From positions 6,289-46,356 of the forward strand of contig CAYOGW010000005.1 in NCBI GenBank assembly GCA_964403635.1: 40,068 nt of DNA, written 5' to 3'. Under the pieces are notes generated by a model. It was not told the DNA's origin. It made no database searches and was given only the letters and a program-made list of their open reading frames with translations. This DNA is from an uncultured Anaerolineaceae bacterium (GTDB lineage Bacteria > Chloroflexota > Anaerolineae > Anaerolineales > Villigracilaceae). Position numbers and translations under genes: made by a program. Shown here piece by piece: positions 16,148 to 34,150 of the stretch. The stretch's first letter is position 1, and each line of letters starts with the position of its first letter.

Positions 16148-16149
16148 AA

Positions 16150-18191: not shown

Positions 18192-18192
18192 A

Positions 18193-19386
18193 ATGCCAAA
18201 ACCCCTGCATGTTGCCTTTGTTTCGCAAGAATACCCGCCAGAAACTGGCTGGGGCGGCATTGGCTCGTACACCTACGAAATGGCAAACGGGCTGGCAGAG
18301 ATGGGCGTACAAGTGAGCGTAATTTGCTTGGCGCTAGTACAAGAAACACAAACCCAAGAGAAAAATTTAACCATCTACCGTGTGAGACCAGCCCCCCGCT
18401 GGGAACGCCTGCGCGGCGGCTGGCGGATTAACCGATTTTGGCCGGGTTTTGCTTGGGCAGCTGCTCAGCAACTGAGATTAATTAATCAGACTAAGCCGAT
18501 TGATTTGATCGAATATGCCGAAATTCGCGGCGATGGGTTTTTTCTTCCGTTTTTACTACCAGCCATTAAACGAGTGGTGCGCCTGCATACCGCTTGGATT
18601 TTTGTAGATGAATTAAATAAAATTAAACCCAATACTGCTAAAAAATTAATCTACTGGCAAGAAAAACAAAGTGTTTACGCTGCCCATTCTGTCAGTTCGC
18701 CCAGCCACGCCATGTTTGAAAAAACGCTCACTTGGCTGCCGAGCTTAAAAAAGAAGCCGCGTTTTATTTTGCCAAACCCTGTAGATGCCGAAACCTTTTT
18801 ACCAAAAACCAAAACACCCAAACAACAAGAGATTGTATTCATTGGGCGCCCTGAAATTCGCAAAGGGATTGAAACGCTCACCCAAGCCTTGCCAAATATA
18901 TTAGAAAATAATCCACAGGTTGTCTTTCGTTTAATCAGCGACCCGCAAACCGAATTAATGGGTGAACCCGCACAAGAATGGGTTTTAAAACAAATGCCCC
19001 AAAACCTGCACCCGCGCATCACCTTTGAAGCGGTAACCCGAGACCAATTGCCAAAAACGCTCTCCAGCGCCAGCCTCGCCGTGCTGCCCTCGCTTTGGGA
19101 AAACTTTCCCTACGCGATACTCGAAGCCATGTCTTGCGGCTTGCCTGTAGTGGTTACGCGCATTGGCGGCTTACCAGAAATCGTCACCGATTTAGAAAAC
19201 GGGCTGCTTGTGCCTGTCGGTAACACGGCAGCCCTTAGCCAAGCGGTTACGTCTCTACTGCAAAACCCAACCCTACGCGCCAACTTGGGGGCAGCCGCCC
19301 GCCAACAAGTGTTACAAAATTTCAGCCGAAAGGCGGTATTACCCGCTATGCTTTCTTATTATCAAACCCTTGCGAGCCAGCCATGA
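18193..19386 (+). CDS. GT4-family glycosyltransferase (GT-B fold)
   Basis: N-terminal 'FVSQEYPPETGWGGIGSYTYEMANGLAEMG' and C-terminal 'ENFPYAILEAMSCGLPVVVTRIGGLPEIV' (E-x7-E motif region). Confidence 0.8.
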   Translation: MPKPLHVAFVSQEYPPETGWGGIGSYTYEMANGLAEMGVQVSVICLALVQETQTQEKNLTIYRVRPAPRWERLRGGWRINRFWPGFAWAAAQQLRLINQTKPIDLIEYAEIRGDGFFLPFLLPAIKRVVRLHTAWIFVDELNKIKPNTAKKLIYWQEKQSVYAAHSVSSPSHAMFEKTLTWLPSLKKKPRFILPNPVDAETFLPKTKTPKQQEIVFIGRPEIRKGIETLTQALPNILENNPQVVFRLISDPQTELMGEPAQEWVLKQMPQNLHPRITFEAVTRDQLPKTLSSASLAVLPSLWENFPYAILEAMSCGLPVVVTRIGGLPEIVTDLENGLLVPVGNTAALSQAVTSLLQNPTLRANLGAAARQQVLQNFSRKAVLPAMLSYYQTLASQP

Positions 19387-20291
19387 CCTTAATCAGCGTT
19401 GTCATTTGCACCCATAACCGCGCGCCATATCTGCGCGCCGCCTTACAAAGCCTCAGCCAGCAAAGTATGTCAAAATCTCGCTTCGAGGTGCTGGTCATTA
19501 ACAACGCTTCCAGCGATTCTACGGTTCAAGTTGCTGAGAGCTTTCAGCAGTCATTAAATATAAAATTAATTAACGAACCCAACCTAGGGCTTTCTTTGGC
19601 TCGCAATCGCGGGTTAGAAACCAGTAAAAGCGAAATTATTTGTTATATGGATGACGACGCGATAGCCAGCCGAGATTACTTAAAAGCGATTCTTTCCGCT
19701 TTTCGGGCGGTCTCCCCCCAGCCTGCTCTCGTTGGTGGGAGAGTTTTGCTCCACTGGAACGGCCCGCTGCCCAACTGGCTGCCAGAAAAATATCTCAGCC
19801 TATACTCCATGCTCGATTATGGCGAACAAGCCAAATTTATTTCTGAAAGTGAGTACCTTGTTGGTGCAAACTTCGCTGCTCAAACTAGCTTTCTGCGCAG
19901 CATTGGCGGCTTTCAGCCAAGCCTAGGCCGTCAAGGCGGAAACCTGCTCTCGGGAGAAGAAACGCAGGTTCTGCTGAAGGCCCGTCAATTGGGGTTACCC
20001 ATCTATTATCAACCCAGCGCGTTGGTTTGGCATACGGTTACCCCAGGGCGGAAAACACGCGCCTGGCTACGAAAGCGGATTTTTTGGGATGGCGCTTCTC
20101 AACCCTTAATTAATTGGAAAGCCGAGCAACCAAAAAGTTATTACTTTAAACAAAGCCTCATCGACCTGCGCCGTATGATTCGCTTTTGCTGGGACCTGCT
20201 TCAAGGCTCTCCGGATGCTTTTTATCATTTGATTCAGCGCAGCGGACGGCTGCGCACCCATTTAATGCTGTGGCTGGGAATTAATCGTTAA
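19383..20291 (+). CDS. GT2-family glycosyltransferase (GT-A fold)
   Basis: 'ISVVICTHNRAPYLRAALQSLSQQ' and the 'YMDDDA' DxD motif. Start overlaps the previous stop (ATGA). Confidence 0.8.
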   Translation: MTLISVVICTHNRAPYLRAALQSLSQQSMSKSRFEVLVINNASSDSTVQVAESFQQSLNIKLINEPNLGLSLARNRGLETSKSEIICYMDDDAIASRDYLKAILSAFRAVSPQPALVGGRVLLHWNGPLPNWLPEKYLSLYSMLDYGEQAKFISESEYLVGANFAAQTSFLRSIGGFQPSLGRQGGNLLSGEETQVLLKARQLGLPIYYQPSALVWHTVTPGRKTRAWLRKRIFWDGASQPLINWKAEQPKSYYFKQSLIDLRRMIRFCWDLLQGSPDAFYHLIQRSGRLRTHLMLWLGINR

Positions 20292-20292
20292 G

Positions 20293-22947
20293 ATGCATAT
20301 TTGTTTTGTCTCTTTAGATTATCCTTCGGAAACTTCTGGCGGCGGCGTAGGAACAATTATGCAGCTGCTGGCAAAGGGATTTTCAGAAGACTGTCAACAA
20401 GTCAGTGTGATTGCGCTTCAACAAGAAGGTGAAGCCCCTTTCTCGCGGGATGGCGATGTGCTTATTTGGCGGTTTAAACCTTCTCACTTGCATTGGTATG
20501 TTTCAAAAATTCCATGGCTGGGAAAGAACTTAAGCCCCGTGGTGAGAGAATTAGAACGAAGCTGGGGCGCTTGGCGGCTGCTACAAAAAATTAATCAACA
20601 AAAAGAAGTTCATGCCGTTGAATTAATTGAAACCGGCGGGCTGTTTATTTCGCTTTTAGAAAGAGCCAAATTAATCGCGGTGCGCTTACACGGCGAACAA
20701 TATACTTTTCAAAAATATACACCTTTCCTTCAACTCAATTGGGGGTTAAAACTCACCCGTTTCATCCAACGTGTTGCCATCCGCAATGCCAATTTAAGAA
20801 TTTCCCCCAGCCACTGGCACGCCCAAGAAATTGCTGAAGAAACCGGTTTAAATAAGCAATCTATTCTGGTTTTATCGAATGCCATTGCTATTCCAACCAA
20901 GTTTCAGTTTTCAAATAATCACGCCAACCCTTTAATTCTTTTTGCTGGACGTTTAGAGCAATTAAAAGGTGTGCCATTGTTATTAGAAGCGTTTGCTTTA
21001 CTGCGAAAAGAAATGCCGCATGTTCGGCTTGCCTTAGCAGGAACATCTCACCCCAGCTTGCCAGAAAGCCAATTGAAAGAACTCATCCATCAATACCACC
21101 TTGAAAAATCAGTTCAACTGCTGGGATACATCCCCAACCAACAGTTAAAAGATTGGTTTAAAAAATCATCTGCGCTGGTGCTGCCTTCGTATTACGAAAG
21201 CTTTGGCTTAGCCGCCTTAGAAGCCATGGCGCACGGTTTACCAGTGGTTGCCTCTACAGCGGGCGCTTTACCCGAATTAATTAAAGAGAATGAAACTGGC
21301 TTGTTATTTAAAAGCGGAGACGCGCAAGCTTTGGCTGGTCAACTAAAAAAAATATTAAGTAGCCCCAAGCTACAAAAGCATTTGGCAAAAAATGCTCACC
21401 GCTTTAGTTTGCAACACTTTAATGCAAAAGAAAGCATTCTGCAAAACTTAACCCTTTATAAAAATAACTTAAAAATCCCGCCAAGCCCCAAACATGTGTT
21501 TTTTTCTCCACATTTGGATGATGTCATCCTTTCGTGCGGTGGAACAGTGAAAGAATTAAATAAAAACGCGCCTGTTGAAGTGGTGACAGTTTTTAGCGGT
21601 CAACCCAAAACCGCCGCAATAGGCACATTTGCAGAACACATTCATGCCAAGTGGAACTTGCCGCCGCAGACCGCAATTCTTTCTCGCCGCGATGAAGACC
21701 TGCTGGCTTTTTCAATTCTGTCTCCTACTATCCAAGTGACCCATTGGGGTTATCTAGAGGCGTTATACCGTCAGGAAAAAAACCACCAACCCCTGCATTC
21801 CGCTTATCAAAGCCTGCGTGGACCTCTACATCAGCAAGAAGAAGCCTTGATACCAACCCTTGTTTCACAAATCGAAAACCATTATTCAAAAGAAAATCAA
21901 CTTTATTTTCCAATGGGTTTGGGCACTCATGTAGACCACCGCATCTTATTTAAAACAGGCTACCAATTAAATCAACGGGGCTGGCCAGTGTTTTTTTATG
22001 AAGACTGGCCCTATGCAGAAAATTACGAACCTATTAGTAAGAAAAATTGGCAAGTTCTTGATCAACCAATTTCGCTTACCGAAAAAATTAAAGCGGCCGA
22101 AGCCTATGGATCTCAGCAAAAAGGGCTTGGGTATAGCCTAGCCGACCGATTAACAAACTATGCTCATCAAAACAAAAACCCATTGAAGACCAGTGAACGC
22201 ATTTGGCAGGCACAGCCCAACGATGAAGAAGTACCATTTAAACTCAAAAAGAAACAATGGCAGCTTGCCGATTTTTTAATTTTTTATAAAAGCCTTAACT
22301 GGAGAGATCTCTCCGAGCGGCTGCCGTTGGGCAGCGGTTACTGTTTAGATATTGGCAGTGGCAGCGGCAGAAACCAAGTAGCCATTGAAACCAAAGGTTA
22401 CACTTGGCTAGGGCTGGATTTAAACCGTCAGCGGAGGCAACACCTGCAAGCCAGCGCCAGCCGCCTGCCGGTAGCCAGCCAAAGCGTTGAGGCGGCTATT
22501 CTTTGGCAAGTGCTAGAATATCTCGAAAACCCTCAACAAGCGTTAGCAGAAGCCATCCGCACTTTAAAACCTGGCGGCGTGCTCTGCGGTAGCGTTTCAT
22601 TTTTAGAGCCGGTTCATGGACAAACCTATTATGGCATCAGCCATCACGCCATTCAAAAATTATTAATAGACCAACCTTTGCTGGATATTCAGATTCAGCC
22701 GGGCATTTCTGGCTTTACCCTGCTGATATGGACCTGGCTTAATCGTCTAGGCTTAAGCAGGCTAAGCGGATTGTGCCTGCCGTTATCGAGGTTTTTTTTG
22801 GTGCCCCCAGCCGCTTTGCTATTTTTGGTCAGTTGGCTGCAATGGCGGTTAGGCTGGGGCAGCGGGCATTTTATGGCGTGGCTGACAGAACGCGCCCCGC
22901 TGGAATTTGCAGGGCATATTCACTTTATTGCCAGAAAAGCAAGCTAA
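20293..22947 (+). CDS. Tri-domain enzyme: GT4 glycosyltransferase / LmbE(PIG-L)-family N-acetylglucosaminyl deacetylase / class I SAM methyltransferase, with C-terminal hydrophobic segment
   Basis: aa 1-390 GT4 ('ESFGLAALEAMAHGLPVVASTAGALPELI'). aa ~400-640 LmbE-like ('VFFSPHLDDVILSCGG' resembling the HPDDE zinc motif, and 'GLGTHVDHR' resembling HxDH). aa ~650-884 MTase ('CLDIGSGSGRN', 'LKPGGVLCGSV'), followed by a hydrophobic tail. Confidence 0.75.
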   Translation: MHICFVSLDYPSETSGGGVGTIMQLLAKGFSEDCQQVSVIALQQEGEAPFSRDGDVLIWRFKPSHLHWYVSKIPWLGKNLSPVVRELERSWGAWRLLQKINQQKEVHAVELIETGGLFISLLERAKLIAVRLHGEQYTFQKYTPFLQLNWGLKLTRFIQRVAIRNANLRISPSHWHAQEIAEETGLNKQSILVLSNAIAIPTKFQFSNNHANPLILFAGRLEQLKGVPLLLEAFALLRKEMPHVRLALAGTSHPSLPESQLKELIHQYHLEKSVQLLGYIPNQQLKDWFKKSSALVLPSYYESFGLAALEAMAHGLPVVASTAGALPELIKENETGLLFKSGDAQALAGQLKKILSSPKLQKHLAKNAHRFSLQHFNAKESILQNLTLYKNNLKIPPSPKHVFFSPHLDDVILSCGGTVKELNKNAPVEVVTVFSGQPKTAAIGTFAEHIHAKWNLPPQTAILSRRDEDLLAFSILSPTIQVTHWGYLEALYRQEKNHQPLHSAYQSLRGPLHQQEEALIPTLVSQIENHYSKENQLYFPMGLGTHVDHRILFKTGYQLNQRGWPVFFYEDWPYAENYEPISKKNWQVLDQPISLTEKIKAAEAYGSQQKGLGYSLADRLTNYAHQNKNPLKTSERIWQAQPNDEEVPFKLKKKQWQLADFLIFYKSLNWRDLSERLPLGSGYCLDIGSGSGRNQVAIETKGYTWLGLDLNRQRRQHLQASASRLPVASQSVEAAILWQVLEYLENPQQALAEAIRTLKPGGVLCGSVSFLEPVHGQTYYGISHHAIQKLLIDQPLLDIQIQPGISGFTLLIWTWLNRLGLSRLSGLCLPLSRFFLVPPAALLFLVSWLQWRLGWGSGHFMAWLTERAPLEFAGHIHFIARKAS

Positions 22948-22948
22948 C

Positions 22949-24121
22949 ATGCAGATACTCTTTTTAAGCATCGAATCACCCTATGACCCAAGCCGCGGCG
23001 GAGGGATTGCTTCTTATTTGCGGGCTATCATTCCCTATTTAATTAATGAGGGGCATCAGGTCACTTTAATTAGCCATGCCTATTTGCCGCCTAAAAACCA
23101 ACCAAAAAGCGTAAATTTTATTATTCAACATATTCAACTACCAAGCCTGCATTGGTATTTGGCAAAATTGGGCAGTCTTGTCAAACCATTGGTCTTGCCA
23201 TTAAGACAACTGGAGTGGTCGATTGGGTTTTACTGGACAGCGAGAACTGTTTTAAAACAACAGCCCAACTGTGTGATTGAATCCGCTGAAAGCGGGGCGC
23301 TTTTGTTCGGGCTGCTGCACCCCAAAAAACTGGTCATCCGTTTGCATGGCAGCGAATATATATTTAGAAAATTTTTAAACCAGCCATTAACTTTAGGAAC
23401 AAAAATTAATTTTTGGCTAGAAAAACAAGCTTTAAAACGAGCGGCGCTGGTAACCGCCCCCAGCCGTTTTCAGGCGGAATATGTTGCAAATCTGCTGGGC
23501 TGGCCTGCCGACAAAATTAAAGTAATTCCCAACCCATTAAGTGAAGATTATTTTCTACCGTTACCAGCGGCAAAAAAACACGCCCGCCCAATGATTTTAT
23601 TTGCTGGCCGCTTGGCAAGCATTAAAGGGGTTGACACCTTAATACAAGCCTTTCCACTGGTTCAAAAAAAGTATCCGCAAGCTTTGTTGGTGTTGGCAGG
23701 ACCCAACCAATTGCCCAATTTAAACTTAACACTAGATGCCAAAGTAGGTATAAACAAAGGCTTGCTTTGGTTGGGGCACCAAACACAAACTCAAATGCAA
23801 GTGTGGTATCAGCGGGCAAGTGTGTTGGCGATGCCTTCTTTTTATGAAACCTTTGGCTTAGCCGCCTTAGAAGCCATGGCTTGCGGCTTACCTGTGGTTG
23901 CCACCCATGTTGGCGGCATTGCTGAATTGATTAAAGACCAGCAAAACGGATTATTGGTTTCTGTTGGAGACGAAAAAGAGTTAGCAGATGGTATATGCAA
24001 AATATTGGAAAACCCTTCATTAAGGCAAACATTGGCTGAAAATGCTCAAAAAACTATCCAACAATATCACCCGCAGCGAGTAAGCTTGCAATTAATGAAA
24101 GCCTATCAGGGATTAATGTGA
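22949..24121 (+). CDS. GT4-family glycosyltransferase
   Basis: 'ETFGLAALEAMACGLPVVATHVGGIAELI' and 'ILFAGRLASIKGVDTLIQAF'. ATG 22949 lies 1 nt after the previous stop; ORF-track start 22907 rejected. Confidence 0.8.
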   Translation: MQILFLSIESPYDPSRGGGIASYLRAIIPYLINEGHQVTLISHAYLPPKNQPKSVNFIIQHIQLPSLHWYLAKLGSLVKPLVLPLRQLEWSIGFYWTARTVLKQQPNCVIESAESGALLFGLLHPKKLVIRLHGSEYIFRKFLNQPLTLGTKINFWLEKQALKRAALVTAPSRFQAEYVANLLGWPADKIKVIPNPLSEDYFLPLPAAKKHARPMILFAGRLASIKGVDTLIQAFPLVQKKYPQALLVLAGPNQLPNLNLTLDAKVGINKGLLWLGHQTQTQMQVWYQRASVLAMPSFYETFGLAALEAMACGLPVVATHVGGIAELIKDQQNGLLVSVGDEKELADGICKILENPSLRQTLAENAQKTIQQYHPQRVSLQLMKAYQGLM

Positions 24122-25281
24122 AAATACTGTTAATATCTGCTTCCTATTTGCCAGTAAAAGGGGGCCTACAAACGGCTACCCATGCGCTTGCCAAAGAATG
24201 GCAAAAAAACGGGCATACGGTGCGAGTCTTAACCAACCATTATCCGCGTGGATTAAAGAGCGCTGAAATGGTTGAGAATATTTCCGTTGAGCGGGAGTTG
24301 TTTTTATCTCCATCGATTGAATTAATTAAGCGTGGGCGCTGGGATATATGGCTTGCCAGCCTTTTTTATCAGCCACTTGTTTTATTGAAACTATTTATAT
24401 TAATGAAACAGTTTCAACCCGATGTGATTAATCTCCATTTCCCTTCATCCCAAGTGCCTTTTGTGCTTTGGTTAAAAAAACATTTTGCATTTAAATTAAT
24501 CGTTTCGTTGCACGGAACTGACATTGAACAATGGTTGAAAGAAGACAAACTAAGCCTTATAACTGAAAAACAAAATAATCCATCTTTTCTTCAGTTGCGG
24601 CGGGTTTTAAAAGAAGCCATGATTATTACCGCTTGTTCTGCCGATTTATTAAACAAAGCTTGTTTTATTGAACCTGAAATTAAAAATAAAAGCCATGTCG
24701 TGCATAATGGAGTGGATTGGAAGTTATTTCAAAGCAAAGAGCAACACTTGCACCCTGCCCCTTATCTTTTTGCTTTTGGGCGTTTAACCGCCGCCAAAGG
24801 GTTTGATCTCTTAATTAAAGCCTTTGACGGTTTAACCAGCCTGCAACCCAACCTAGATTTGCTTTTGGCAGGAGATGGTTCGGAAGCGGCAGCATTAAAA
24901 GAGCAAGTAAAAAAGCTGGGGCTGAGCCAGCGGGTCTTCTTTTTGGGCGCGCTTAACCCGCCAGAGATTGTGAAACTCTTAAATGGCTGTCTGTTTGCAG
25001 TCATTCCATCTCGAAAAGAACCATTTGGCATTGCCGCTTTAGAAGCCATGGCAGCTGGCAAAGCCGTTTTAGCAACAAAGGTTGGCGGATTAAATGAATT
25101 TGTACCAAAAAGAAACAGGCTAGTAAACCCCAATGCCGAATCACTGCTAGAAGGGATGCAACAAATGCTTCAACTCAATTTAACAGAAATCGGTGAAGTA
25201 AACCGGCGAGTGGCAAAAAAACTTTCGTGGGCGGCGGCGGCAGAAAAATTTATTGCGTTATTTAACGAAGCAGGAGTGTAA
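24118..25281 (+). CDS. GT4-family glycosyltransferase
   Basis: 'VKILLISASYLPVKGGLQTATHALAKEW' (GTG start) and 'EPFGIAALEAMAAGKAVLATKVGGLNEFV'. Confidence 0.8.
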   Translation: MKILLISASYLPVKGGLQTATHALAKEWQKNGHTVRVLTNHYPRGLKSAEMVENISVERELFLSPSIELIKRGRWDIWLASLFYQPLVLLKLFILMKQFQPDVINLHFPSSQVPFVLWLKKHFAFKLIVSLHGTDIEQWLKEDKLSLITEKQNNPSFLQLRRVLKEAMIITACSADLLNKACFIEPEIKNKSHVVHNGVDWKLFQSKEQHLHPAPYLFAFGRLTAAKGFDLLIKAFDGLTSLQPNLDLLLAGDGSEAAALKEQVKKLGLSQRVFFLGALNPPEIVKLLNGCLFAVIPSRKEPFGIAALEAMAAGKAVLATKVGGLNEFVPKRNRLVNPNAESLLEGMQQMLQLNLTEIGEVNRRVAKKLSWAAAAEKFIALFNEAGV

Positions 25282-25284
25282 ACG

Positions 25285-26724
25285 GTGGCATCTCAGAAAA
25301 AATCGTTAGGCGGTTTAAAACCCATTCCCAAAAGTGACCTTTCTTTACCCGCGCCATTTATTGTGCTTTTTTTAGTTTGGGGGGTTGCGTTTGCTTTATT
25401 GGCTTCCCCTTTGGTTGCCAGCATGAGCACTGTAGAAAAAATTATTGTATTAGCAATTCCCGCCGTTTTATCTGTTTTGGTAGTGTTGTTAGACATTGAG
25501 CATGGCATGACGTTTTGGGTATTAGGGTTAACGCTGCTGGTAACCCAAACTGGTTTTCAATTAGATATTTCTACTTTAAGAACCAGCGCTTTAGAATTAA
25601 TGACTATTTTGCTAATGGTCATTTTATTTTTTGACCGCACGGGTTTGTTTAAGCGCGTTTGGGCGTTGTTTCCGGGGCGTGTACCGGTTACTTTATTTGC
25701 GTTGTTTTCATTATTAATGTTATTTGTTGGGGTTATTCAAGGCGACAATTTATTACAAGCTCTTTCTCAATTAAAAGGATTTTTAATTTACCCGTTAATG
25801 GGAATTTTGCTGGCGGCGGGCATTCGGTCTACCGCTATGTTGCGCTGGGTCATTGGCATTGTTTTGGCTTGGTATGTTTTAGTGGCTGGCTGGGGCATTC
25901 TTCAATTTGTTCAGGGACAAAATATGTTGGCTCAAGACTATTTGTTCCGTGCATCTGGCGAATATGCCCCGATTAATATTTATGGTATTACTTTAATGGC
26001 TTGTGCATTATTGTTAGCGGGCATTGTCATCAGTACGCGCGGATTTCGCAGCCGTGTGCTGGGCAGTGGATTAATGATTTGGCTCATTATTGGCATGCTG
26101 GTTTCTGTTTCTCGCTCGGCTTTGCTTGGCTTGGTAATTGGCTTAATTGTCTTGTTTTTAGAAAGAAAAAGCCTTCGTATGATTATTGTTGGCTTGATAT
26201 TGGTGGGTCTCGCCGCTTGGGCGCTTTCAGACCTGCTTCCGCACGAAATCACCAACCGTTTATTTCAACTATCCGATTCATCCACTGTCCGGCGCGAATT
26301 CTACCTAGAATCAGGTTGGCAAGCTTTGCTCACTTTTTGGGCGTACGGCGGCGGCTGGGGCAATGGCTATTGGTATGTTTCTAACGCGGGCTTGGTGAAA
26401 TCTGGTTTTATGCCTTGGTATCACAATGATTTTTTAAACCTAGCGGTTCAAATTGGCGTTTTTGGCGCTTTTTTATATATCCTTTTTTGGGGGCGGGTCG
26501 TTCAAACCGGTTGGCTTTGGCTGCGCACCTACGCCACTAGTCAGCCAGAACTAGTTCCATTTGCGCGCGGCGCGCTGGCCGCGTTAATCGGCTTGCTGGT
26601 GGCCGCGGTTTTTGAACATGTTTTATGGCGCCCAGATATTGCCGGTTTGGTGGGTTGGATGCTCGGCATTTTAATTGCCATAATCACTTTGCAAAAACGC
26701 TTTGCTGAAGATACACCCGCATGA
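25285..26724 (+). CDS. Wzy_C / O-antigen ligase family polytopic membrane protein (polymerase, WaaL-like ligase or O-oligosaccharyltransferase)
   Basis: About 11 predicted TM helices. 'SVSRSALLGLVIGLIVLF' and 'WYHNDFLNLAVQIGVFGAF' resemble the Wzy_C loop/helix motifs with conserved R and H. GTG start with SD 'aggagt'. Confidence 0.65.
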   Translation: MASQKKSLGGLKPIPKSDLSLPAPFIVLFLVWGVAFALLASPLVASMSTVEKIIVLAIPAVLSVLVVLLDIEHGMTFWVLGLTLLVTQTGFQLDISTLRTSALELMTILLMVILFFDRTGLFKRVWALFPGRVPVTLFALFSLLMLFVGVIQGDNLLQALSQLKGFLIYPLMGILLAAGIRSTAMLRWVIGIVLAWYVLVAGWGILQFVQGQNMLAQDYLFRASGEYAPINIYGITLMACALLLAGIVISTRGFRSRVLGSGLMIWLIIGMLVSVSRSALLGLVIGLIVLFLERKSLRMIIVGLILVGLAAWALSDLLPHEITNRLFQLSDSSTVRREFYLESGWQALLTFWAYGGGWGNGYWYVSNAGLVKSGFMPWYHNDFLNLAVQIGVFGAFLYILFWGRVVQTGWLWLRTYATSQPELVPFARGALAALIGLLVAAVFEHVLWRPDIAGLVGWMLGILIAIITLQKRFAEDTPA

Positions 26725-27869
26725 AAAAAATTGTTTTTATCGATGAGACAGCAGAAATTGGCGGAGCAGAAATTAATTTATTGTTGCTTGCCGAACAATT
26801 AAACCAATTAAACTGGGATATAGAAGTCTGGCTGCCTAAGCTTGGACCTTTAGTGCAAAAACTAGAAGCGCGCTCTATCCCCGTTAAAATCATCCCTGCT
26901 TTTCGGTGGTTTTCTGTTTCATTTTATCTATTCGGCAAAAAAATAATTAACCCAGCCGCGCTGATTGTTAATTTGATCAGCGGTTTAATTTGGAGTTATC
27001 GATTACGAACAGCTTTAAAAGAAACCCGCCCTCAGGTTGTACAAACGGTCAGTTTATGGGGGCACGCTTGGGGTGGGTTCGCCGCCCGTTCCTTCAATAT
27101 CCCGCATGTGGCTCATTTTCAAGATATCGTTTCGAAAGGGCTGTTTCAATTTTTGGTTAATCAATGGGGCAATTCCATCCCCACTAAAATTATTTGCATC
27201 TCTAAACCGGTAGCCAAGCAATTTAATTTAAATGCATCAAAGAAATTAATCACACTACCCAATATCGTTGATATTAATAAATTTACCCCAGCAACAAACA
27301 AGCCAAAAAACAATATTTTAACCATTGGCACAGTGGCGCGCATCACCCGCTGGAAAGGGCAAGACCAAGCCTTAAAAGTAGCCGCCCTGCTTAAGCAAGA
27401 GAACATTCCATTTCAATGGTGGTTTATTGGCAGCGCGGCGCTCGGCTCAGAAGACTTTTTTGAAGAATTAAAGGATTTCATTAATAAGCATCAATTAACC
27501 GAAGTGGTTACACTGGCGGGCTGGCACGAAAACATGCCCGCCTTTTACCAAAGCCTCGATCTGCTGGTTCATTTGCCAACTGAAACAGAGCCTTTTGGGC
27601 TGGTATTAGCGGAAGGTTTAGCCAGTGGTCTTTCGGTGATTGCCACCGAAGGCGGCGGCGCAGATGAATTGGTGCGGGCGGGCGGCGGTTTTTTAGTTTC
27701 CAAAACCAACCCCGTTGTAGAAGCCCGCAATAGAGTGGTTGACCTTTGGCAAAACCCATCCCTCTTAAGCCAAAGCAAGCAAGAAGCCCGCCGTATAGCA
27801 GAAAATCTATTTAGCCTTTCGGTTTACATTTTTAATTGGCAAACCATTTATAAGGAGTTAGGCGCATGA
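26721..27869 (+). CDS. GT4-family glycosyltransferase
   Basis: 'MKKIVFIDETAEIGGAEINLLLLAEQL' and 'EPFGLVLAEGLASGLSVIATEGGGADELV'. Confidence 0.8.
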   Translation: MKKIVFIDETAEIGGAEINLLLLAEQLNQLNWDIEVWLPKLGPLVQKLEARSIPVKIIPAFRWFSVSFYLFGKKIINPAALIVNLISGLIWSYRLRTALKETRPQVVQTVSLWGHAWGGFAARSFNIPHVAHFQDIVSKGLFQFLVNQWGNSIPTKIICISKPVAKQFNLNASKKLITLPNIVDINKFTPATNKPKNNILTIGTVARITRWKGQDQALKVAALLKQENIPFQWWFIGSAALGSEDFFEELKDFINKHQLTEVVTLAGWHENMPAFYQSLDLLVHLPTETEPFGLVLAEGLASGLSVIATEGGGADELVRAGGGFLVSKTNPVVEARNRVVDLWQNPSLLSQSKQEARRIAENLFSLSVYIFNWQTIYKELGA

Positions 27870-28681
27870 GCAGACAAAAAATATCGGTCATTGTGCCAAC
27901 CGGCAACCGCATGGATACCCTAGAAGATTGTTTAAACAGTGTTCATTGGGCAGATGAAATACTGGTCATCGATTCGTATTCAACAGACGGTTCTTTTAAA
28001 TTGGCAGAAAAACTTGCCACCAAAGTGATAAAACACGAATATGGCTTTTCTGCTTTGCAAAAAAACTGGGCTATTCCACAAGCCGCTCACCAATGGGTTT
28101 TATTGCTGGATACCGATGAACGTGTGACCGAAACCCTTAAACAAGAAATTTTGACCATTCTAGAAAAAAACCCGCCGCTGGCTGGCTATAAAATTGCCCG
28201 TGTTAATTATTTGTTTGGTAAAAAAGTAAGCCACGCGGGCTACTTTCCAGATTATCAAGTGCGGTTGTTTCGGCGAGATTTAGCCAAGTATGAGCTTCGC
28301 CAAGTGCACGCCCATATGATAGTAGAAGGCGACTGCGGCGCCTTAAATGCTCCGCTGGTTCATTATGCTCACCGCAGCTTAAACCAAACTTTGCAAAATT
28401 TATTAATCCAAATGACCACCTGGGAAGCCGAAGAACGGGCAAAAAAGCCCGTTCGTTTCTTGGCTTTCCATTTAATTTTTAGACCCATCGCCGCCTTTTT
28501 GTTGCGTTATTTTTGGCAAGGCGGCTGGCGCAGCGGATTTCACGGTTTCGTTGTGAGCTTACTGTGGGCGATGTATGTTTGTATTACCTACCTAAAAATT
28601 TGGGAAAGCCAATTAAATTTAGCGCCTAATTGGTGGCAAGCCCACTGGCAGCAGCCGCAGGTTCAACATGACGGCGGATAA
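27866..28681 (+). CDS. GT2-family glycosyltransferase
   Basis: 'ISVIVPTGNRMDTLEDCLNSV' and the 'LLDTDE' DxD motif. Hydrophobic C-terminal region. Confidence 0.75.
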   Translation: MSRQKISVIVPTGNRMDTLEDCLNSVHWADEILVIDSYSTDGSFKLAEKLATKVIKHEYGFSALQKNWAIPQAAHQWVLLLDTDERVTETLKQEILTILEKNPPLAGYKIARVNYLFGKKVSHAGYFPDYQVRLFRRDLAKYELRQVHAHMIVEGDCGALNAPLVHYAHRSLNQTLQNLLIQMTTWEAEERAKKPVRFLAFHLIFRPIAAFLLRYFWQGGWRSGFHGFVVSLLWAMYVCITYLKIWESQLNLAPNWWQAHWQQPQVQHDGG

Positions 28682-29666
28682 ACCTCGTTTATTATTCCTT
28701 CACAACGGGCAAGAACGATTTGTACAACAGGATTTACAGTTGCTGCAAAGCGATTTTCAAGTCACCGATTTTTACATGCCTAACAAATTCCCACAAAACG
28801 GGTTTAAACTCTGGCAGGCTATTCAGGCTGCCGATGTGATTTTTATTTGGTTCGCCAGTTGGAATGCCTTTTGGGCTATCCAAATCGCAAATTTATTCAA
28901 TAAAAAATCGGTCTTGGTAGTTGGCGGTTACGACACAGCCAACCTGCCAATTGCCAACTATGGCAGCCAGCGCGGCGGGCTGACAAAATGGATGAGCCAA
29001 AACACCATGAAAACAGCCGATTTAATTTTGCCATTTTCAGAATATAGCCGTAGCGAAGCCCACACCCAAGCTGAGATTAATTTACAAAAAATGCATACCG
29101 TTTACCTAGGCGTGCCCGACCTTTTTGCTGATTCGCAAAACTTCTCTAAAAACGGTTCGGTATTAACCGTTGGCAATGTAGAATGGGCCAACCTACAACG
29201 CAAAGGGTTAGAACCATTTGTACAAACAGCCAGCCGATTACCAGAAACCAATTTCATCTTAATTGGCGCGTGGCGAGACGATTCGATTAATTATTTAAAA
29301 AAAATTGCCACCCCCAATGTTACGTTTACTGGGAAATTAAGCGATACTGAATTAATAAATTACTATCGCGAAGCCAGCGTTTATGTGCAAGCCTCGCTGC
29401 ACGAGGGCTTTGGCTTAAGCGTTGCAGAAGCCATGCTGGCAGAATGTGTACCCGTGGTAACCAAAGTTGGCTCGCTGCCAGAAGTAGTTGGCGAATGCGG
29501 AATTTATGCAGACTCACCCGAGCCTGCCCACCTCGCCACAAGCATTCAACAAGCTTTTAACGCTCAACCCGAACAAGGGAAAAAAGCCCGTCAAAGGATA
29601 TTAATTAAATTCCCACCAGAAAACCGTCAAAAAGCGCTCAGTGATTTCATTAAGGGGCTGCTATGA
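28668..29666 (+). CDS. GT4-family glycosyltransferase (short N-domain)
   Basis: 'EGFGLSVAEAMLAECVPVVTKVGSLPEVV' and 'FILIGAWRDDS'. Overlaps the previous gene by 14 nt. Confidence 0.7.
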   Translation: MTADKPRLLFLHNGQERFVQQDLQLLQSDFQVTDFYMPNKFPQNGFKLWQAIQAADVIFIWFASWNAFWAIQIANLFNKKSVLVVGGYDTANLPIANYGSQRGGLTKWMSQNTMKTADLILPFSEYSRSEAHTQAEINLQKMHTVYLGVPDLFADSQNFSKNGSVLTVGNVEWANLQRKGLEPFVQTASRLPETNFILIGAWRDDSINYLKKIATPNVTFTGKLSDTELINYYREASVYVQASLHEGFGLSVAEAMLAECVPVVTKVGSLPEVVGECGIYADSPEPAHLATSIQQAFNAQPEQGKKARQRILIKFPPENRQKALSDFIKGLL

Positions 29667-30715
29667 AAACCAAACAACCGTTAGTCAGCATTGTCATCCC
29701 CATCCGCAATGGAGAGAAACATATCGGCGAAACCCTGCGAGCCATTTGCAGCCAAGATTACCCGCTTAAGCGGATGGAAGTTTTGGTTGTAGACGGCCTG
29801 TCTACCGATGGAACACGCATAGTGGTAGAACAAACTGCCAGCCAAAATCCGAACTTATTAATTAAATTTTTAATTAATCAAAAACAAATAACCCCCTGTG
29901 CATTAAATATTGGCATTTTACAATCGCATGGCGATTTCATCCTGCGGGTTGATAGCCGCACCCAAATTGCGGTGGATTATGTTTCGGCATGTGTGGCGGC
30001 TCATTTGCGCAGCGGCGCAGAAAATGTGGGCGGGCCGCTCACTTCACAAGGGTTAACCTTGTTCGGAAAAGCCTCGGCGTTGGCAACCAGTGACCGTTTT
30101 GGAGTTGGCAATGCACTCCACCATTATGCAAAAGAAGATGTGTGGGCAGATACGGTTTACATGGGTGCTTGGCCGCGCACCGTTTTTGAAAAAATAGGGC
30201 TTTTTGACGAGGAACAAGTGCGCAACCAAGACGATGAATTTAATTATCGTCTGCAAGCCGCGGGCGGGCGTATTTTGGTTTCACCCCTCATTAAATTAAT
30301 GTACACCGTTCGAACCGATTCTCCTGCTCAACTGTGGCAGCAATTTTATGAATATGGCTTTTGGAAAGTGCGCGTTTGGCAAAAACACCCAAGCCAAATT
30401 CGCCCCCGCCAATTCATTCCTCCGCTATTTGTTTTTTGTCTTTTCATCGGCTTAATCATTAGCCTTCTATATCCAATAGCTTGGTTTTTATGGCTGCCCG
30501 TTTTCTCTCTTTACCTTATTCTTAATTTATTTTCATCCATTGCCATTGCACACCAAACCAACTGGAACGTACTGCCAGTATTACCCATTGCCTTTGCCAT
30601 GCTGCACTTTGGCTATGGCTCAGGGCTGCTGTGGGGGTTAATTAAATTTGCAAACCACTGGCAAGACCGCCAAGGAATTATTCCCAGCCTCCCCAAAAAA
30701 GAAGCCCATGAATAA
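29663..30715 (+). CDS. GT2 polyprenyl-phosphate glycosyltransferase, GtrB/ArnC-like, with C-terminal TM helices
   Basis: 'VSIVIPIRNGEKHI...VVDGLSTDGT' and 'DDEFNYRL' fit a GT-A domain. Two C-terminal TM helices ('FIPPLFVFCLFIGLIISLLYPIAWFLWLPVFSLYLILNLFS') are characteristic of GtrB-type enzymes. Confidence 0.7.
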   Translation: MKTKQPLVSIVIPIRNGEKHIGETLRAICSQDYPLKRMEVLVVDGLSTDGTRIVVEQTASQNPNLLIKFLINQKQITPCALNIGILQSHGDFILRVDSRTQIAVDYVSACVAAHLRSGAENVGGPLTSQGLTLFGKASALATSDRFGVGNALHHYAKEDVWADTVYMGAWPRTVFEKIGLFDEEQVRNQDDEFNYRLQAAGGRILVSPLIKLMYTVRTDSPAQLWQQFYEYGFWKVRVWQKHPSQIRPRQFIPPLFVFCLFIGLIISLLYPIAWFLWLPVFSLYLILNLFSSIAIAHQTNWNVLPVLPIAFAMLHFGYGSGLLWGLIKFANHWQDRQGIIPSLPKKEAHE

Positions 30716-31412
30716 CGACTTCGAACGACTACAAAAAGAATACCTAGCGCGAGAAAATCGCTTTGCAAACGACTCTCGATATTCACCTTTTAATCAAGAA
30801 TATTTGTTTACAAAGAGCCAACTTAATCGCCATCTCTTAAACATGCTCTCCAAACACGGGGTTCAAAACCTCGGCACTTCTAAAATTTTAGAAGTAGGCT
30901 GCGGAACCGGCGGCGTTTTAGTAGATTATTTAAGCTATGGAGCATCAGCCAATCACATTCACGGGGTAGATGTACTGCCCCACCGGCTGACCCAAGCCCG
31001 CAGCCGCCTTCCGTTTTTACAAATATCCCAAGCGGATGGTATCGCCCTGCCATTCGCTGCCGAACAGTTTGATATTGTCTGCCAATACACCATGTTTTCA
31101 TCCATTTTAGACGAATCCATTAAACAAAAAATTGCCCAAGAAATGCTCAGAGTGCTTAAAACAAACGGCATCTTAATTTGGTACGACTTCTGGTGGAACC
31201 CAACCAACCCAGCCACAAAAGGCATTCGCCAATTAGAAATTAAACTGTTATTTGCACCATTTAAAACATCCATCCAGCGGGTTACCTTAGCGCCGCCCAT
31301 CGCAAGGAAAACCGTGCCATTCTCTTGGGGCTTCTCGCTCATGCTAGAAAACCTGAAAATCTTCAACAGCCATCTTTTAGTGGTTATCCGCAAGGATTCT
31401 GCAATTGATTAG
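30706..31412 (+). CDS. Class I SAM-dependent methyltransferase
   Basis: 'ILEVGCGTGGVLVDYL' motif I and 'LKTNGILIWYDF' post-I. Start 30706 (MNNDFERLQ) overlaps the previous stop by 10 nt; the ORF track's GTG 30648 lies deeper inside the upstream gene. Confidence 0.7.
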
Positions 31413-31482
31413 CCCGATGTTGCAATGTTCTTATACGCATTGAATTGGCATAATGGGGCTACTCTATAAAGGAAAGACGCTT

Positions 31483-32994
31483 ATGAAAAGTTTACCCATT
31501 ACACGCCCAATTATCCAAATTGAAGAAAACGCCGGCCTGCAAAAATGGATTAATGTTGTCCTTAAACGCAGTTTCGATATCTTTGCTTCTCTGTTTGGGC
31601 TTTTGCTTCTTGCTCCATTTTTTGTATTAATTGGCTTCTTTATAAAACGCGAATCTCCCGGCCCGGTCTTCTTTAAAGGGCCTCGCATGGGCAAAAACCA
31701 ATCTATTTTTTACATTTGGAAATTCCGCACCATGTACGAAAGAGTAGAAAGTTATGAAGGGCCTTCCATCACAGCCAAAGGAGATGCCCGTATCACACCC
31801 CTTGGTCACTGGTTACGATTAACAAAAATAAACGAATTACCTCAATTAATTAATGTTTTGTTTGGGGAAATGAGTTTGGTTGGGCCTCGCCCTGAAGTGC
31901 CAGAAATTGCCCAAGACTGGCCCAAAGACGCCAAGCGAGAAGTGCTTTCCGTTCAACCTGGCATTACCAGCCCCGCTTCTATTCTCTATCGAGATGAAGA
32001 AGCTATGTTAATTGGCAATAACAGCATGGATGATTACCTGCGAAAAATATTGCCAGATAAACTTCGCCTCGACCAGCTTTATGTTCGCAATCACACCTTC
32101 TTATCCGATTTAGATGTCATTTTGATGACATTAATCGTGCTGCTGCCAACTGTTCGCAACACACCCATTCCTGAAGCGCGCTTATACGTTGGTCCACTTT
32201 CTATCTTTACCCACCGCATCTGGAATTGGTTTGTCATTGACAGCTTAATTGCTTTTACTGCCATCGCCGCCGCAGGTATTTTGTGGCGCACAGGCGGCCC
32301 GCTAGAACTAGGCGTTGATGTAGCCCTATTGGTGGGGTTAATCATGGCATTAATATTCAGCCTATCAAATTATCTCTTAGGCCTGCATCGTGTCGCTTGG
32401 AGATACGCCCCACCGGCTCTGGCGATTGACTTGGCATTTTCTGGCTTCTTAGCCACCCTAAGCATTGTTGCAGTTAATTTCTCGTGGCCTGGGCAGCAAC
32501 TGCCACTAGGAATGCTTTTATTTTCTGGCTTTTTCACCTTTATCGGTTTTACAGCCGCCCGCTACCGCGAGCGCCTTCTTATGGGCTTGGCCTCCCGCTG
32601 GGTATACCACCGTAACCGCTTTAGCCCGATTGGCGAACGTGTCTTAATTGTTGGCGCCGGTGAATATGGTCAAATGGCCGCTTGGCTTATGCAAAAAAGC
32701 GCCTTCGCTTCGGCTTATGTAATTTTAGGCATGGTCGACGATGACATTCACAAACAAGGCATGTTAATTGACGGTTACCCGGTAGTTTGCGGCTCACGAG
32801 AATTAGCCCGCATGGTTAAAGACAAAGATGTAGGTTTAATTTTATTTGCCATCTCAAACATTAATCCGCGAGAACGAGAGCGAATTTTAAACATCTGCCG
32901 CAAAACCAACGCAAGGGTTGTCATCATGCCCGATATTTTGCAAATTTTACACACCCAATTAGCACAAGAGACTCCTTACCAAACCTATGCCTAA
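31483..32994 (+). CDS. Polyprenyl-phosphate phosphoglycosyl transferase (bacterial sugar transferase family) with atypical order: catalytic domain, then 4 TM, then Rossmann-like domain
   Basis: N-terminal 'KRSFDIFASLFGLLLLAPFFVLIGFFIKRESPGPVFFKGPRMG...FYIWKFRTM...NELPQLINVLFGEMSLVGPRPEVPE' is the PGT catalytic core. Four TM helices then follow, then 'LIVGAGEYGQMAAWLM...ILGMVDDD', which resembles the cytoplasmic Rossmann-like domain of WbaP/PglF-type proteins. SD 'ggaaag' before ATG 31483. Confidence 0.75.
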   Translation: MKSLPITRPIIQIEENAGLQKWINVVLKRSFDIFASLFGLLLLAPFFVLIGFFIKRESPGPVFFKGPRMGKNQSIFYIWKFRTMYERVESYEGPSITAKGDARITPLGHWLRLTKINELPQLINVLFGEMSLVGPRPEVPEIAQDWPKDAKREVLSVQPGITSPASILYRDEEAMLIGNNSMDDYLRKILPDKLRLDQLYVRNHTFLSDLDVILMTLIVLLPTVRNTPIPEARLYVGPLSIFTHRIWNWFVIDSLIAFTAIAAAGILWRTGGPLELGVDVALLVGLIMALIFSLSNYLLGLHRVAWRYAPPALAIDLAFSGFLATLSIVAVNFSWPGQQLPLGMLLFSGFFTFIGFTAARYRERLLMGLASRWVYHRNRFSPIGERVLIVGAGEYGQMAAWLMQKSAFASAYVILGMVDDDIHKQGMLIDGYPVVCGSRELARMVKDKDVGLILFAISNINPRERERILNICRKTNARVVIMPDILQILHTQLAQETPYQTYA

Positions 32995-34150
32995 CCCATC
33001 TGCATCATCCCCCCAATGGCGGGTACCGCTCGCCGAAGTAGACTTTGGTCCCGAAGAACCCGCTGCTGTTTTAGCCGTTTTAAAGAGCCGTTGGCTTAGC
33101 ATGGGTGCTGTTACTAAAGCCTTCGAAGATGAGTTCGCAGCCTTTTGCGGTGCAAAACACGCTTTTGCCCTCACCAATGCCACAGCCGCCCTGCATCTCT
33201 CTTGCTTGGCAGCTGGCGTAGGCAGCGGAGATGAAGTCATTCTCCCGAGTCTTACCTTTGTTGCCACTGCCAACGCTATTCGATACACTGGCGCAAAACC
33301 GGTTTTCGCAGATGTGAACAGCTTAAACGACTGGACATTATCACCTGAAGCAGCAGAAGCCTTAATTACCCCCCGTACGCGTGCCATCATGCTCATGCAC
33401 TACGCGGGTTACGCATGCAATATCTCTGCTTTTCAAGCGCTTGCCGAGAAGCACAATTTAATTTTATTAGAAGATGCAGCCCATGCTGTAGGCGGCACCC
33501 TCAACAATCAGCATCTTGGAACGTTTGGACAAAGCGGCAGTTATAGCTTCTTTCCGAACAAAAATATGACCACCGCCGAAGGCGGCATGTTGGTTACCAA
33601 CGATGATGCCATCGCCGAAAAATTTCGCATCCTGCGCTCGCACGGCATGACCAGCCTAACCTGGGACCGCCACCGCGGTCACGCTTTCAGTTACGATGTT
33701 GTTGATTTAGGTTATAACTACCGAATGGATGAGTTAAGGTCTGCCTTAGGGCGGGTTCAACTTAACAGAATAACAGCAGGCAACCAAAAGCGCCGCCAGC
33801 TCACCGAGCAATATCGCAGCCAATTAAATGGTCTACAAATTCCATTTGATCATCACACCGGTACATCGGCCTGCCATATATTGCCCGCTTTATTACCCGA
33901 AGGCGTTAACCGAAATCGATTTATGGAAGTGATGAAAGAAAACGGGATTCAAACCAGCATTCACTACCCGCCCATCCATACATTTAGTGAATTTAACAGG
34001 CAGACTCCCGAAGGCCGCCTACCCATTACCGAAGCCATTGGCCAGCGAGAAGTAACCCTGCCGCTCTTCCCCGCCATGAGCGCAGAACAATTAAACTGGG
34101 TTATCTCAGCGGCGAAAGACGCGTTAGAAACTTGTTTGCAAGAAGGATAA
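32987..34150 (+). CDS. DegT/DnrJ/EryC1/StrS-family PLP-dependent sugar aminotransferase
   Basis: 'DEVILPSLTFVATANAIRYTGAKPVFADV', 'LEDAAHAVGG' and 'SFFPNKNMTTAEGGM' (PLP-lysine region, aligned by context). Confidence 0.85.
   Translation: MPNPSASSPQWRVPLAEVDFGPEEPAAVLAVLKSRWLSMGAVTKAFEDEFAAFCGAKHAFALTNATAALHLSCLAAGVGSGDEVILPSLTFVATANAIRYTGAKPVFADVNSLNDWTLSPEAAEALITPRTRAIMLMHYAGYACNISAFQALAEKHNLILLEDAAHAVGGTLNNQHLGTFGQSGSYSFFPNKNMTTAEGGMLVTNDDAIAEKFRILRSHGMTSLTWDRHRGHAFSYDVVDLGYNYRMDELRSALGRVQLNRITAGNQKRRQLTEQYRSQLNGLQIPFDHHTGTSACHILPALLPEGVNRNRFMEVMKENGIQTSIHYPPIHTFSEFNRQTPEGRLPITEAIGQREVTLPLFPAMSAEQLNWVISAAKDALETCLQEG

Follow-up and report, generated by a model that had tools for sequence, protein, structure and literature searches.

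The gene under study lies on the forward strand of a 40,068-nucleotide stretch of contig CAYOGW010000005.1, assembled from an uncultured Anaerolineaceae bacterium of the phylum Chloroflexota; this whole stretch is referred to as the window in the following. The encoded protein (the query) has the fold of a monotopic phosphoglycosyl transferase (monoPGT), in which the catalytic domain is followed by four transmembrane (TM) helices and a Rossmann-like nucleotide-binding domain. Comparison of sequences and profiles renders it very probable that this architecture arose by fusion of a PGT with a PglF-type dehydratase and loss of the short-chain dehydrogenase/reductase (SDR) domain, and that the protein is a look-alike rather than a true permutant of the large PGTs (Lg-PGTs). 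Moreover, the query and all of its 120 closest homologs carry Asn-Glu at the position of the catalytic Asp-Glu dyad.

Domain order and predicted topology

The gene is contained in a single open reading frame (ORF) on the + strand (31453..32994, 513 aa). A second in-frame ATG at 31483, the start chosen in an earlier reading of the letters alone (the sequence-only reading), gives a 503-aa product. This is likely the true start rather than the upstream ATG at 31453, since the Shine-Dalgarno-like AAAGGAAAG sits 7 nt 5' of it and a 503-aa database entry (P0001) is 100% identical to the product from 31483 over 503 aa. A search of 5.8 billion proteins returned >5,000 matches, the best 120 of which are referred to below as close homologs; residues described as invariant refer to the family alignment A1. 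The parts of the gene are as follows.

31483..32994, + strand: C-terminally extended monotopic PGT gene, stop codon included; 503 aa (513 aa from 31453)
31564..32145, + strand: Bac_transf (monoPGT) catalytic domain, residues 38-231, including the re-entrant helix, K90, R122 and P145-R146-P147
31573-31644, + strand: re-entrant membrane helix, residues 41-64, with the DX12P motif D42...P55
31831..31836, + strand: dyad position, N127 (AAC codon) and E128, invariant in A1 and in the 120 close homologs
32194..32562, + strand: four TM helices, residues ~248-370, from hydropathy, charge distribution and AlphaFold2 helices
32635..32967, + strand: predicted cytoplasmic Rossmann-like nucleotide-binding domain (PF13727, "DUF"), residues ~395-505, with invariant G401-A402-G403 and D429-D430

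The sequence-only reading had placed the catalytic core at the N-terminus, followed by four TM helices and a Rossmann-like domain, and this order is borne out by Pfam coordinates, hydropathy and structure prediction alike. Pfam locates Bac_transf (PF02397) on residues 38-231 (E 2.3e-53), and not in the usual C-terminal place, and CoA_binding_3 (PF13727) on residues 316-493 (E 3.8e-9, 37.2 bits vs a cut-off of 25); a PglD_N-like Rossmann sub-domain (PF17836) is weakly detectable (E 1.5e-6). The strings on which the assignment had been based were all recovered: FDIFASLFGLLLLAPFFVLIGFFI at residues 41-64, K38R39..D42I43, VGPRPE at 143-148, LIVGAGEYGQMAAWLM at 398-413 and GMVDDD at 426-431. By hydropathy the four TM helices fall within residues 256-368, and the positive-inside pattern predicts a cytoplasmic location for both soluble domains. 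An AlphaFold2 model computed from a 37-sequence family alignment (pLDDT 85.1, pTM 0.61) comprises a re-entrant helix with the PGT fold, helices at 248-281, 288-308, 322-344 and 352-370, a connecting helix, and an alpha/beta Rossmann domain at 395-505. The TM region aligns to the TM region of the N-terminal modules of PglF/CapD proteins as well as to that of the Lg-PGT profile TIGR03025. The latter matches the query reciprocally, with profile positions 244-439 on query residues 22-231 and profile positions 2-232 on query residues ~262-503, and TIGR03023, a second Lg-PGT profile, behaves likewise. The module sequence is thus a cyclic shift of the Lg-PGT order, as had been noticed from the letters. 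Domain searches found no SDR or Polysacc_synt_2 domain in the query protein or anywhere in the window, in line with the earlier observation that the dehydratase part is missing.

Probable fusion rather than permutation

Two origins had been put forward for this arrangement, namely a circular permutation of a WbaP/WcaJ-type Lg-PGT, or the joining of a small PglC-like PGT with the N-terminal part of a PglF/CapD-type protein, less its dehydratase. The second is supported by comparisons of the C-terminal module (TM helices plus Rossmann-like domain, C-module). In a tblastn search against 72,556 plasmids the C-module retrieved 140 records, and all of the top 60 are PglF/CapD/WbpM-type "NDP-sugar epimerase/dehydratase" genes, matched at 27-31% identity across both TM helices and Rossmann domain; PGTs are carried by >1,100 plasmids of the same collection. 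With phmmer, four PglF/CapD-type references were matched end to end at 44-53 bits and WbgZ at 23 bits, vs ≤10 bits for the N-terminal modules of Lg-PGTs. A hidden Markov model (HMM) of the family C-module scored 16 PglF-type proteins at a median of 54 bits and 23 Lg-PGTs at 0 (p = 3e-4), and hhalign scores were 216 (26% identity) for the PglF-type profile vs 174 (17% identity) for the Lg-PGT profile. The C-module also matches the structure 3nkl.

The closest relatives of the module are found in proteins that still carry a dehydratase domain. The weightiest evidence came from an exhaustive search of 1.84 billion cluster representatives, of which the top 150 were assigned to architecture classes by local HMM classification: 80 consist of catalytic domain and module, 30 of catalytic domain, module and SDR (tri-domain fusions), 23 of the catalytic domain only, and 17 are module-only fragments. 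The Lg-PGT order, module before catalytic domain, was found in 0 of these 150. The tri-domain proteins (817-940 aa), in which Pfam confirms Bac_transf, CoA_binding_3 and Polysacc_synt_2, are abundant in Chloroflexota and align with the query collinearly in one stretch (query 37-500, 33-39% identity). Scored with the family HMM, tri-domain modules reach up to 156 bits, those of free-standing PglF proteins ≤78 and those of Lg-PGTs ≤62; the order of closeness is accordingly PGT-4TM-DUF-dehydratase fusions first, free-standing PglF/CapD second and Lg-PGTs last. In a bootstrapped neighbour-joining (NJ) tree of modules that included the fused classes, the sister of the family consisted of fused classes only in 200 of 300 replicates and of Lg-PGTs only in 16 of 300. 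The smallest clade holding the family and at least 80% of the other fusions contained a median of 17 of the 21 PglF-type modules and 4 of the 17 Lg-PGT modules.

The catalytic domain leads in the same direction, its best annotated relatives being small PGTs. It is 45% identical to a 196-aa PGT from a Shigella sonnei plasmid, which we take to be WbgY. This protein scores 139.6 bits against the query domain vs 76-97 bits for Lg-PGT catalytic domains, and shares with it an insertion that other PGTs do not have. Among 80 species-representative loci, the HMM of the family catalytic domain gave small PGTs (n=35) a median of 197 bits and Lg-PGTs (n=23) one of 150 bits (p = 6e-9). Judged by these scores, the catalytic domain is closest to WbgY-like small PGTs, i.e. 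those that adjoin genes for a DegT-family aminotransferase and a PglF-type dehydratase. The unfused order DegT, small PGT, PglF-type gene is present in S. sonnei (with a 14-nt gap), in Rhizobium and at loci L014, L019, L020 and L043. A DegT gene lies within 5 kb of 26 of the 35 small-PGT relatives and of 0 of the 23 Lg-PGTs, and the family has one equally close. Proteins of the same two-part architecture with an intact Asp-Glu dyad occur in other phyla (L034 from Deltaproteobacteria, P0172, P0177).

A true circular permutation would have required that a WbaP/WcaJ-type gene be duplicated in tandem, that the copies be fused in frame and that the outer halves then be lost. The observed order is precisely a cyclic shift of the Lg-PGT order, the reciprocal matches of TIGR03025 and TIGR03023 are consistent with it, and all three module classes are homologous (hhalign of CapD vs Lg-PGT, 296). 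Still, both halves of the query are nearer to relatives other than Lg-PGTs, the nearest outgroups are PGT-module-SDR fusions collinear with the query, the Lg-PGT order is missing from the top 150 representatives, and the DegT linkage kept by the family is that of small PGTs (26/35) and not of Lg-PGTs (0/23). A permutation in the evolutionary sense is therefore very unlikely, whereas the fusion of a small PGT to a PglF/CapD N-module is backed by HMM scores, tblastn, hhalign and the collinear tri-domain fusions.

Several points weigh against this conclusion. The module scores overlap, as one Lg-PGT module (L066) reaches 62 bits, level with many PglF modules. The module phylogeny was built by NJ only, on ~20% identity, and when the fused outgroups were omitted (capped distances) the sister group was unresolved, with 108 replicates for CapD only, 143 for Lg-PGTs only and 49 mixed of 300. 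As to the order of events, we infer by parsimony that the tri-domain protein came first; the alternative is that a di-domain protein formed first and gained the SDR domain later.

One might also suspect an error of assembly or annotation, or a gene that was recently inactivated: a frameshift or nonsense mutation confined to this genome would have cut short a tri-domain PGT-PglF gene. Tri-domain relatives do exist in the same phylum, and the window holds no dehydratase. However, hundreds of sequences conserve the ~500-aa form and stop at the same place with DegT immediately downstream (here with an 8-nt overlap), no SDR remnant is found downstream in any frame, and the DegT ORF fills that space. 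The conserved architecture refutes this explanation, and its probability is negligible.

Asparagine in place of the catalytic aspartate

All members of the monoPGT superfamily have been stated to possess an Asp-Glu dyad (PMC10519829), the Asp carboxylate of which attacks the beta-phosphate to form a covalent phosphoglycosyl-Asp intermediate and also binds Mg2+ (bioRxiv 10.1101/2023.09.19.558431). In the query, N127-E128 aligns with the Asp-Glu dyad of all reference PGTs, and the pair is Asn-Glu in each of the 120 close homologs as well. By comparison, when 80 locus ORFs and 6 reference PGTs were aligned together with the query, 81 of these 87 catalytic domains had Asp-Glu. The six exceptions are the query, three family loci, one small PGT of Neolewinella (Asn-Glu) and the fusion at locus L036 (Asp-Val). 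Among cluster representatives the ratio of Asn-Glu to Asp-Glu is 43 : 1 in the close family, whereas 28 of the tri-domain fusions have Asp-Glu and 2 have Asn-Glu. The Asp is kept by P0154 from the close family, and Asn-Glu recurs in eight more-distant fused representatives, including two tri-domain ones.

The remainder of the active site is intact. Among the conserved monoPGT residues listed in PMC12802240, the DX12P motif is present (D42 and P55, 12 residues apart, both invariant in A1), and K59 and R88 of PglC correspond to K90 and R122 of the query, with the PRP motif at 145-147, all invariant in the family alignment. The spacing of 5 between R122 and the dyad is preserved. No second-site change that tracks the Asp to Asn replacement was detected between the family and its Asp-Glu fused relatives, save at position 221, and that change is not common to the independent Asn-Glu lineages.

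Two of the deviating proteins deserve separate mention. The Neolewinella protein (L048:9971-10699, Neolewinella aquimaris DSM 105137, a cultured member of the Bacteroidota) is encoded by a 243-aa stop-to-stop ORF, has its Asn-Glu dyad in the context KINELPQL, and adjoins a DegT gene and a Polysacc_synt_2 gene that lacks the TM module; this strain could offer a tractable organism for the Asn variant. The L036 protein (L036:1-2436, from a Flavobacteriales metagenome-assembled genome, MAG) is a PGT-4TM-DUF-Polysacc_synt_2 fusion that has lost the Glu (Asp-Val), its ORF being cut at the 5' end of the contig.

Conservation and variants of the family

The sequence-only reading had proposed to look for the same architecture in other genomes. 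All 120 close homologs carry both modules; they are uniformly ~500 aa long, 50-81% identical to the query over >87% of its length, and come mostly from Chloroflexota/Anaerolineae MAGs. Mean identity to the query is 60% in the catalytic half and 49% in the C-module. Invariant residues fall in both halves and include G401-A402-G403 and D429-D430 of the nucleotide-binding domain.

Some relatives outside the window have acquired further domains. An additional C-terminal GGDEF domain of ~180 aa is found in P0111, P0123, P0126, P0127, P0131, P0135, P0137, P0151 and P0154. The GG[DE]EF motif is degenerate in these proteins (ADNI, EDDL, GEND, GENS, GENE) and the RxxD at the inhibitory-site (I-site) position is conserved; from its motifs the domain looks like a receptor of cyclic di-GMP and not like a cyclase. 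The tri-domain relatives P0388 and P0384 have PilZ and receiver domains in place of GGDEF. In P0092 (878 aa) and P0127 (1021 aa) an N-terminal GT2 glycosyltransferase domain precedes the PGT, and P0127 combines this with the C-terminal GGDEF domain.

Gene neighbourhood

The gene is embedded in a co-directional set of glycan genes, annotated with Pfam.

15320..31412, + strand: upstream glycan cluster with Wzm/Wzt ABC transporter, methyltransferases, GT4 and GT2 glycosyltransferases, Wzy_C-type polymerase/ligase and a GT4-PIG-L-methyltransferase fusion
32987..34150, + strand: DegT/DnrJ/EryC1-family aminotransferase, overlapping the PGT stop codon by 8 nt; conserved downstream neighbour
34159-36036, + strand: Wzz/GNVR-BY-kinase; conserved downstream
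36042-36545, + strand: low-molecular-weight phosphotyrosine phosphatase (LMW-PTP); conserved downstream
36558-37571, + strand: LytR-CpsA-Psr (LCP) ligase; conserved downstream

Six family loci on long contigs follow the order of the window, i.e. glycosyltransferases, Wzy_C, glycosyltransferases, (methyltransferase), PGT, DegT, Wzz/BY-kinase, LMW-PTP, and LCP or NTP_transf_5. DegT lies directly downstream of the fusion PGT in L091, L092, L096 and L013. No other PF02397 or PF00953 gene was found within ±10 kb in seven family contexts.

The DegT protein is most similar to UDP-sugar 4-aminotransferases of the PseC/ArnB type, although its best NCBIfam scores (PseC 335 bits, ArnB 305 bits) are below all equivalog cut-offs and no equivalog was assigned. 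A PglF-type dehydratase had been suggested as its natural, now missing partner. With respect to ancestry this is plausible, as DegT, PGT and PglF genes are commonly arranged together in relatives; for the locus itself it is hypothetical, and the window holds no dehydratase that would supply DegT. A detached dehydratase ("headless PglF") was considered at L093, L094 and L095, where an SDR of 331-348 aa follows the fusion gene. These SDRs are RmlB-like (GDP_Man_Dehyd 225 bits, Epimerase 183, Polysacc_synt_2 only 74), with an RmlA-like nucleotidyltransferase alongside, and the candidate was rejected.

At L031:8695-13338 (a Verrucomicrobiota MAG), a DegT gene is followed by a PGT with a C-terminal 4TM/DUF module and an Asp-Glu dyad and, after 33 nt, by a complete PglF-type dehydratase with a module of its own. 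The two module copies in adjacent genes suggest possible hetero-oligomerisation.

Elsewhere in the window, the 884-aa ORF at 20293-22947 (+) joins a GT4 glycosyltransferase, a PIG-L-type de-N-acetylase and a SAM methyltransferase domain. Genes of the ABC-transporter pathway (Wzm ABC-2 permease, Wzt ATPase with Wzt_C) and of the Wzy pathway (Wzy_C protein, Wzz-BY-kinase) occur side by side (15320-17412, 25285-26724, 34159-36036); a Wzx-type flippase was not detected in the window. Convergent to and right after the LCP gene, 37636-39729 (-) encodes a 697-aa protein with Big_3_5 and He_PIG Ig-like domains and a sortase domain at its end. Three ORFs gave no Pfam match at E ≤ 0.01: 7828-9399 (+, 523 aa), 10415-11377 (-, 320 aa) and 12275-13114 (-, 279 aa).

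Proposed function

Overall, the best explanation, and one that we regard as moderately likely, is that the query is a PGT-fold protein composed of a small PGT and a PglF-type module, with the SDR domain lost, which acts as the initiating enzyme of its glycan cluster. Adjacent genes for a PglC/WbgY-type small PGT and a PglF-type dehydratase would have fused to give a tri-domain PGT-4TM-DUF-SDR protein, and subsequent loss of the SDR dehydratase domain would have left the PGT with a four-helix bundle and a cytoplasmic PF13727 domain. As the surrounding Wzy/BY-kinase/LCP glycan cluster holds no other PGT-like gene, we infer that the protein initiates the repeat unit of this cluster on polyprenol phosphate. 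By analogy to the DUF of WbaP, which binds UMP, UDP and UTP and mediates dimerisation (PMC10942596), the C-module may anchor and oligomerise the enzyme and sense uridine nucleotides. The substrate is probably a UDP-sugar of the amino or N-acetyl-hexosamine (acetamido) type, given the WbgY-like catalytic domain and the adjacent DegT gene.

Two considerations count against this functional assignment. The link between DegT and the PGT substrate is weak, since there is no dehydratase in the window and DegT accompanies RmlA/RmlB-like genes in three family loci; DegT may supply a dTDP-sugar for a downstream glycosyltransferase instead. The protein may not be an active PGT, because the Asp that would serve as covalent nucleophile and Mg2+ ligand is an Asn. 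Any catalysis would have to depart in some details from the canonical phosphoglycosyl-Asp ping-pong mechanism, as this exchange is family-wide and the other active-site residues are invariant.

The PGT domain could accordingly be a pseudo-enzyme that binds UDP-sugar and/or undecaprenyl phosphate without turnover and works as scaffold, sensor or regulator, while a PGT encoded elsewhere, e.g. of the WecA/TagO type, initiates the glycan. In favour of this explanation, the query and 120 of 120 close homologs have Asn-Glu where the accepted mechanism uses the Asp, and the degenerate GGDEF domains with conserved RxxD in some family members lend them a sensor-like architecture. Furthermore, the cluster contains an LCP ligase, and the substrates of such ligases in monoderms are often initiated by TagO/WecA-type enzymes. 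Conversely, identity to the query is higher in the catalytic half (60% vs 49%), Asn does not drift at position 127 but is fixed there, the other listed active-site residues are invariant, and neither compensating nor decaying second-site changes set the family apart from its Asp-Glu relatives. No other PGT is encoded within 10 kb in the seven contexts. P0154 and many fused relatives keep the Asp and Asn recurs elsewhere, which suggests that the two states are functionally interchangeable. We consider a pseudo-enzyme rather unlikely. The better conserved catalytic half, the fixed N127 and the lack of another PGT within 10 kb argue for a functional site, but they fit a non-canonical catalyst and a substrate-binding pseudo-enzyme alike.

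A more far-reaching proposal is possible, though somewhat doubtful: that the Chloroflexota-centred Asn-Glu clade is still the sole initiating enzyme of its glycan clusters, and that the dehydratase-derived module is a portable regulatory or oligomerisation unit. If so, the monoPGT fold could transfer without a phosphoglycosyl-Asp intermediate, either by direct attack of the polyprenol phosphate or with the Glu as nucleophile. Published accounts treat the Asp-Glu dyad and the covalent phosphoglycosyl-Asp mechanism as common to all monoPGTs (PMC10519829; bioRxiv 10.1101/2023.09.19.558431). Against this background, a large family with conserved Asn-Glu in an otherwise intact site would represent either a new class of PGT pseudo-enzymes or evidence for an alternative mechanism.

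The apparent permutation itself has an ordinary explanation in domain shuffling; of specialist interest are the PglF-type module as a portable unit and the loss of the nucleophile throughout the family. Here a PglF-type module is joined to a PGT in inverted order, and selection has maintained it after the probable loss of the dehydratase domain. Its attachment and retention argue that the module can work on its own and be passed between proteins, providing membrane anchoring, oligomerisation and nucleotide sensing, and that PGT and PglF act in physical proximity. The findings also bear on annotation, as proteins of this family now carry only the label "sugar transferase" in public databases.

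Comparison with known systems

No description of the architecture or of the Asn-Glu variant was found in the literature searched, which left out the sequence similarity network (SSN) paper of O'Toole et al. 2021, and searches of full texts for circularly permuted or fused PGTs brought up nothing relevant. The nearest relatives are the tri-domain PGT-4TMH-PF13727-Polysacc_synt_2 fusions (e.g. P0167, P0176, P0178; L036), which are collinear with query residues 37-500, share its three-part order and occur in Chloroflexota. Unlike the query they keep a C-terminal PglF-type SDR domain, and 28 of the 30 representatives have the Asp-Glu dyad. Their labels are [quoted passage not shown] at JGI and "polysaccharide biosynthesis protein" at NCBI.

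The membrane-bound UDP-N-acetylhexosamine (UDP-HexNAc) 4,6-dehydratases PglF, CapD, WbpM and WbgZ share the 4TM and PF13727 module with the query end to end at 27-31% identity, and their genes frequently follow immediately on those for DegT and a WbgY-like small PGT. In these dehydratases the module is N-terminal and the SDR domain follows, whereas in the query the module is C-terminal to the PGT and there is no SDR domain.

Lg-PGTs (WbaP, WcaJ, CpsE, EpsZ) are made of the three module types found in the query and share its predicted topology, in which all soluble parts are cytoplasmic, and the PF13727 domain of the query plausibly shares their roles in dimerisation and uridine-nucleotide sensing (PMC10942596). 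The layout differs, however, as the TM helices and DUF of the query are C-terminal to the catalytic domain, and both halves resemble Lg-PGTs less than they resemble other classes. Lg-PGTs have Asp-Glu where the query has Asn-Glu. The beta-hairpin of the Lg-PGT DUF that is involved in the homodimer has no counterpart in the query model, which ends after the helix at 495-505, the protein ending at residue 513.

Small monoPGTs of the WbgY/PglC type end after the catalytic domain and carry Asp-Glu, whereas the query is extended and carries Asn-Glu. An extension of this kind is also known from the bifunctional monoPGTs (Bi-PGTs), e.g. Neisseria PglB with its PGT and acetyltransferase, which like the query consist of a PGT core with an extra C-terminal domain. 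The partners in Bi-PGTs are defined as additional catalytic domains (PMC11626204). The fused partner of the query, unlike these, is a membrane bundle with a nucleotide-binding domain of no known catalytic activity; its tri-domain relatives with an SDR domain, on the other hand, would qualify as Bi-PGTs.

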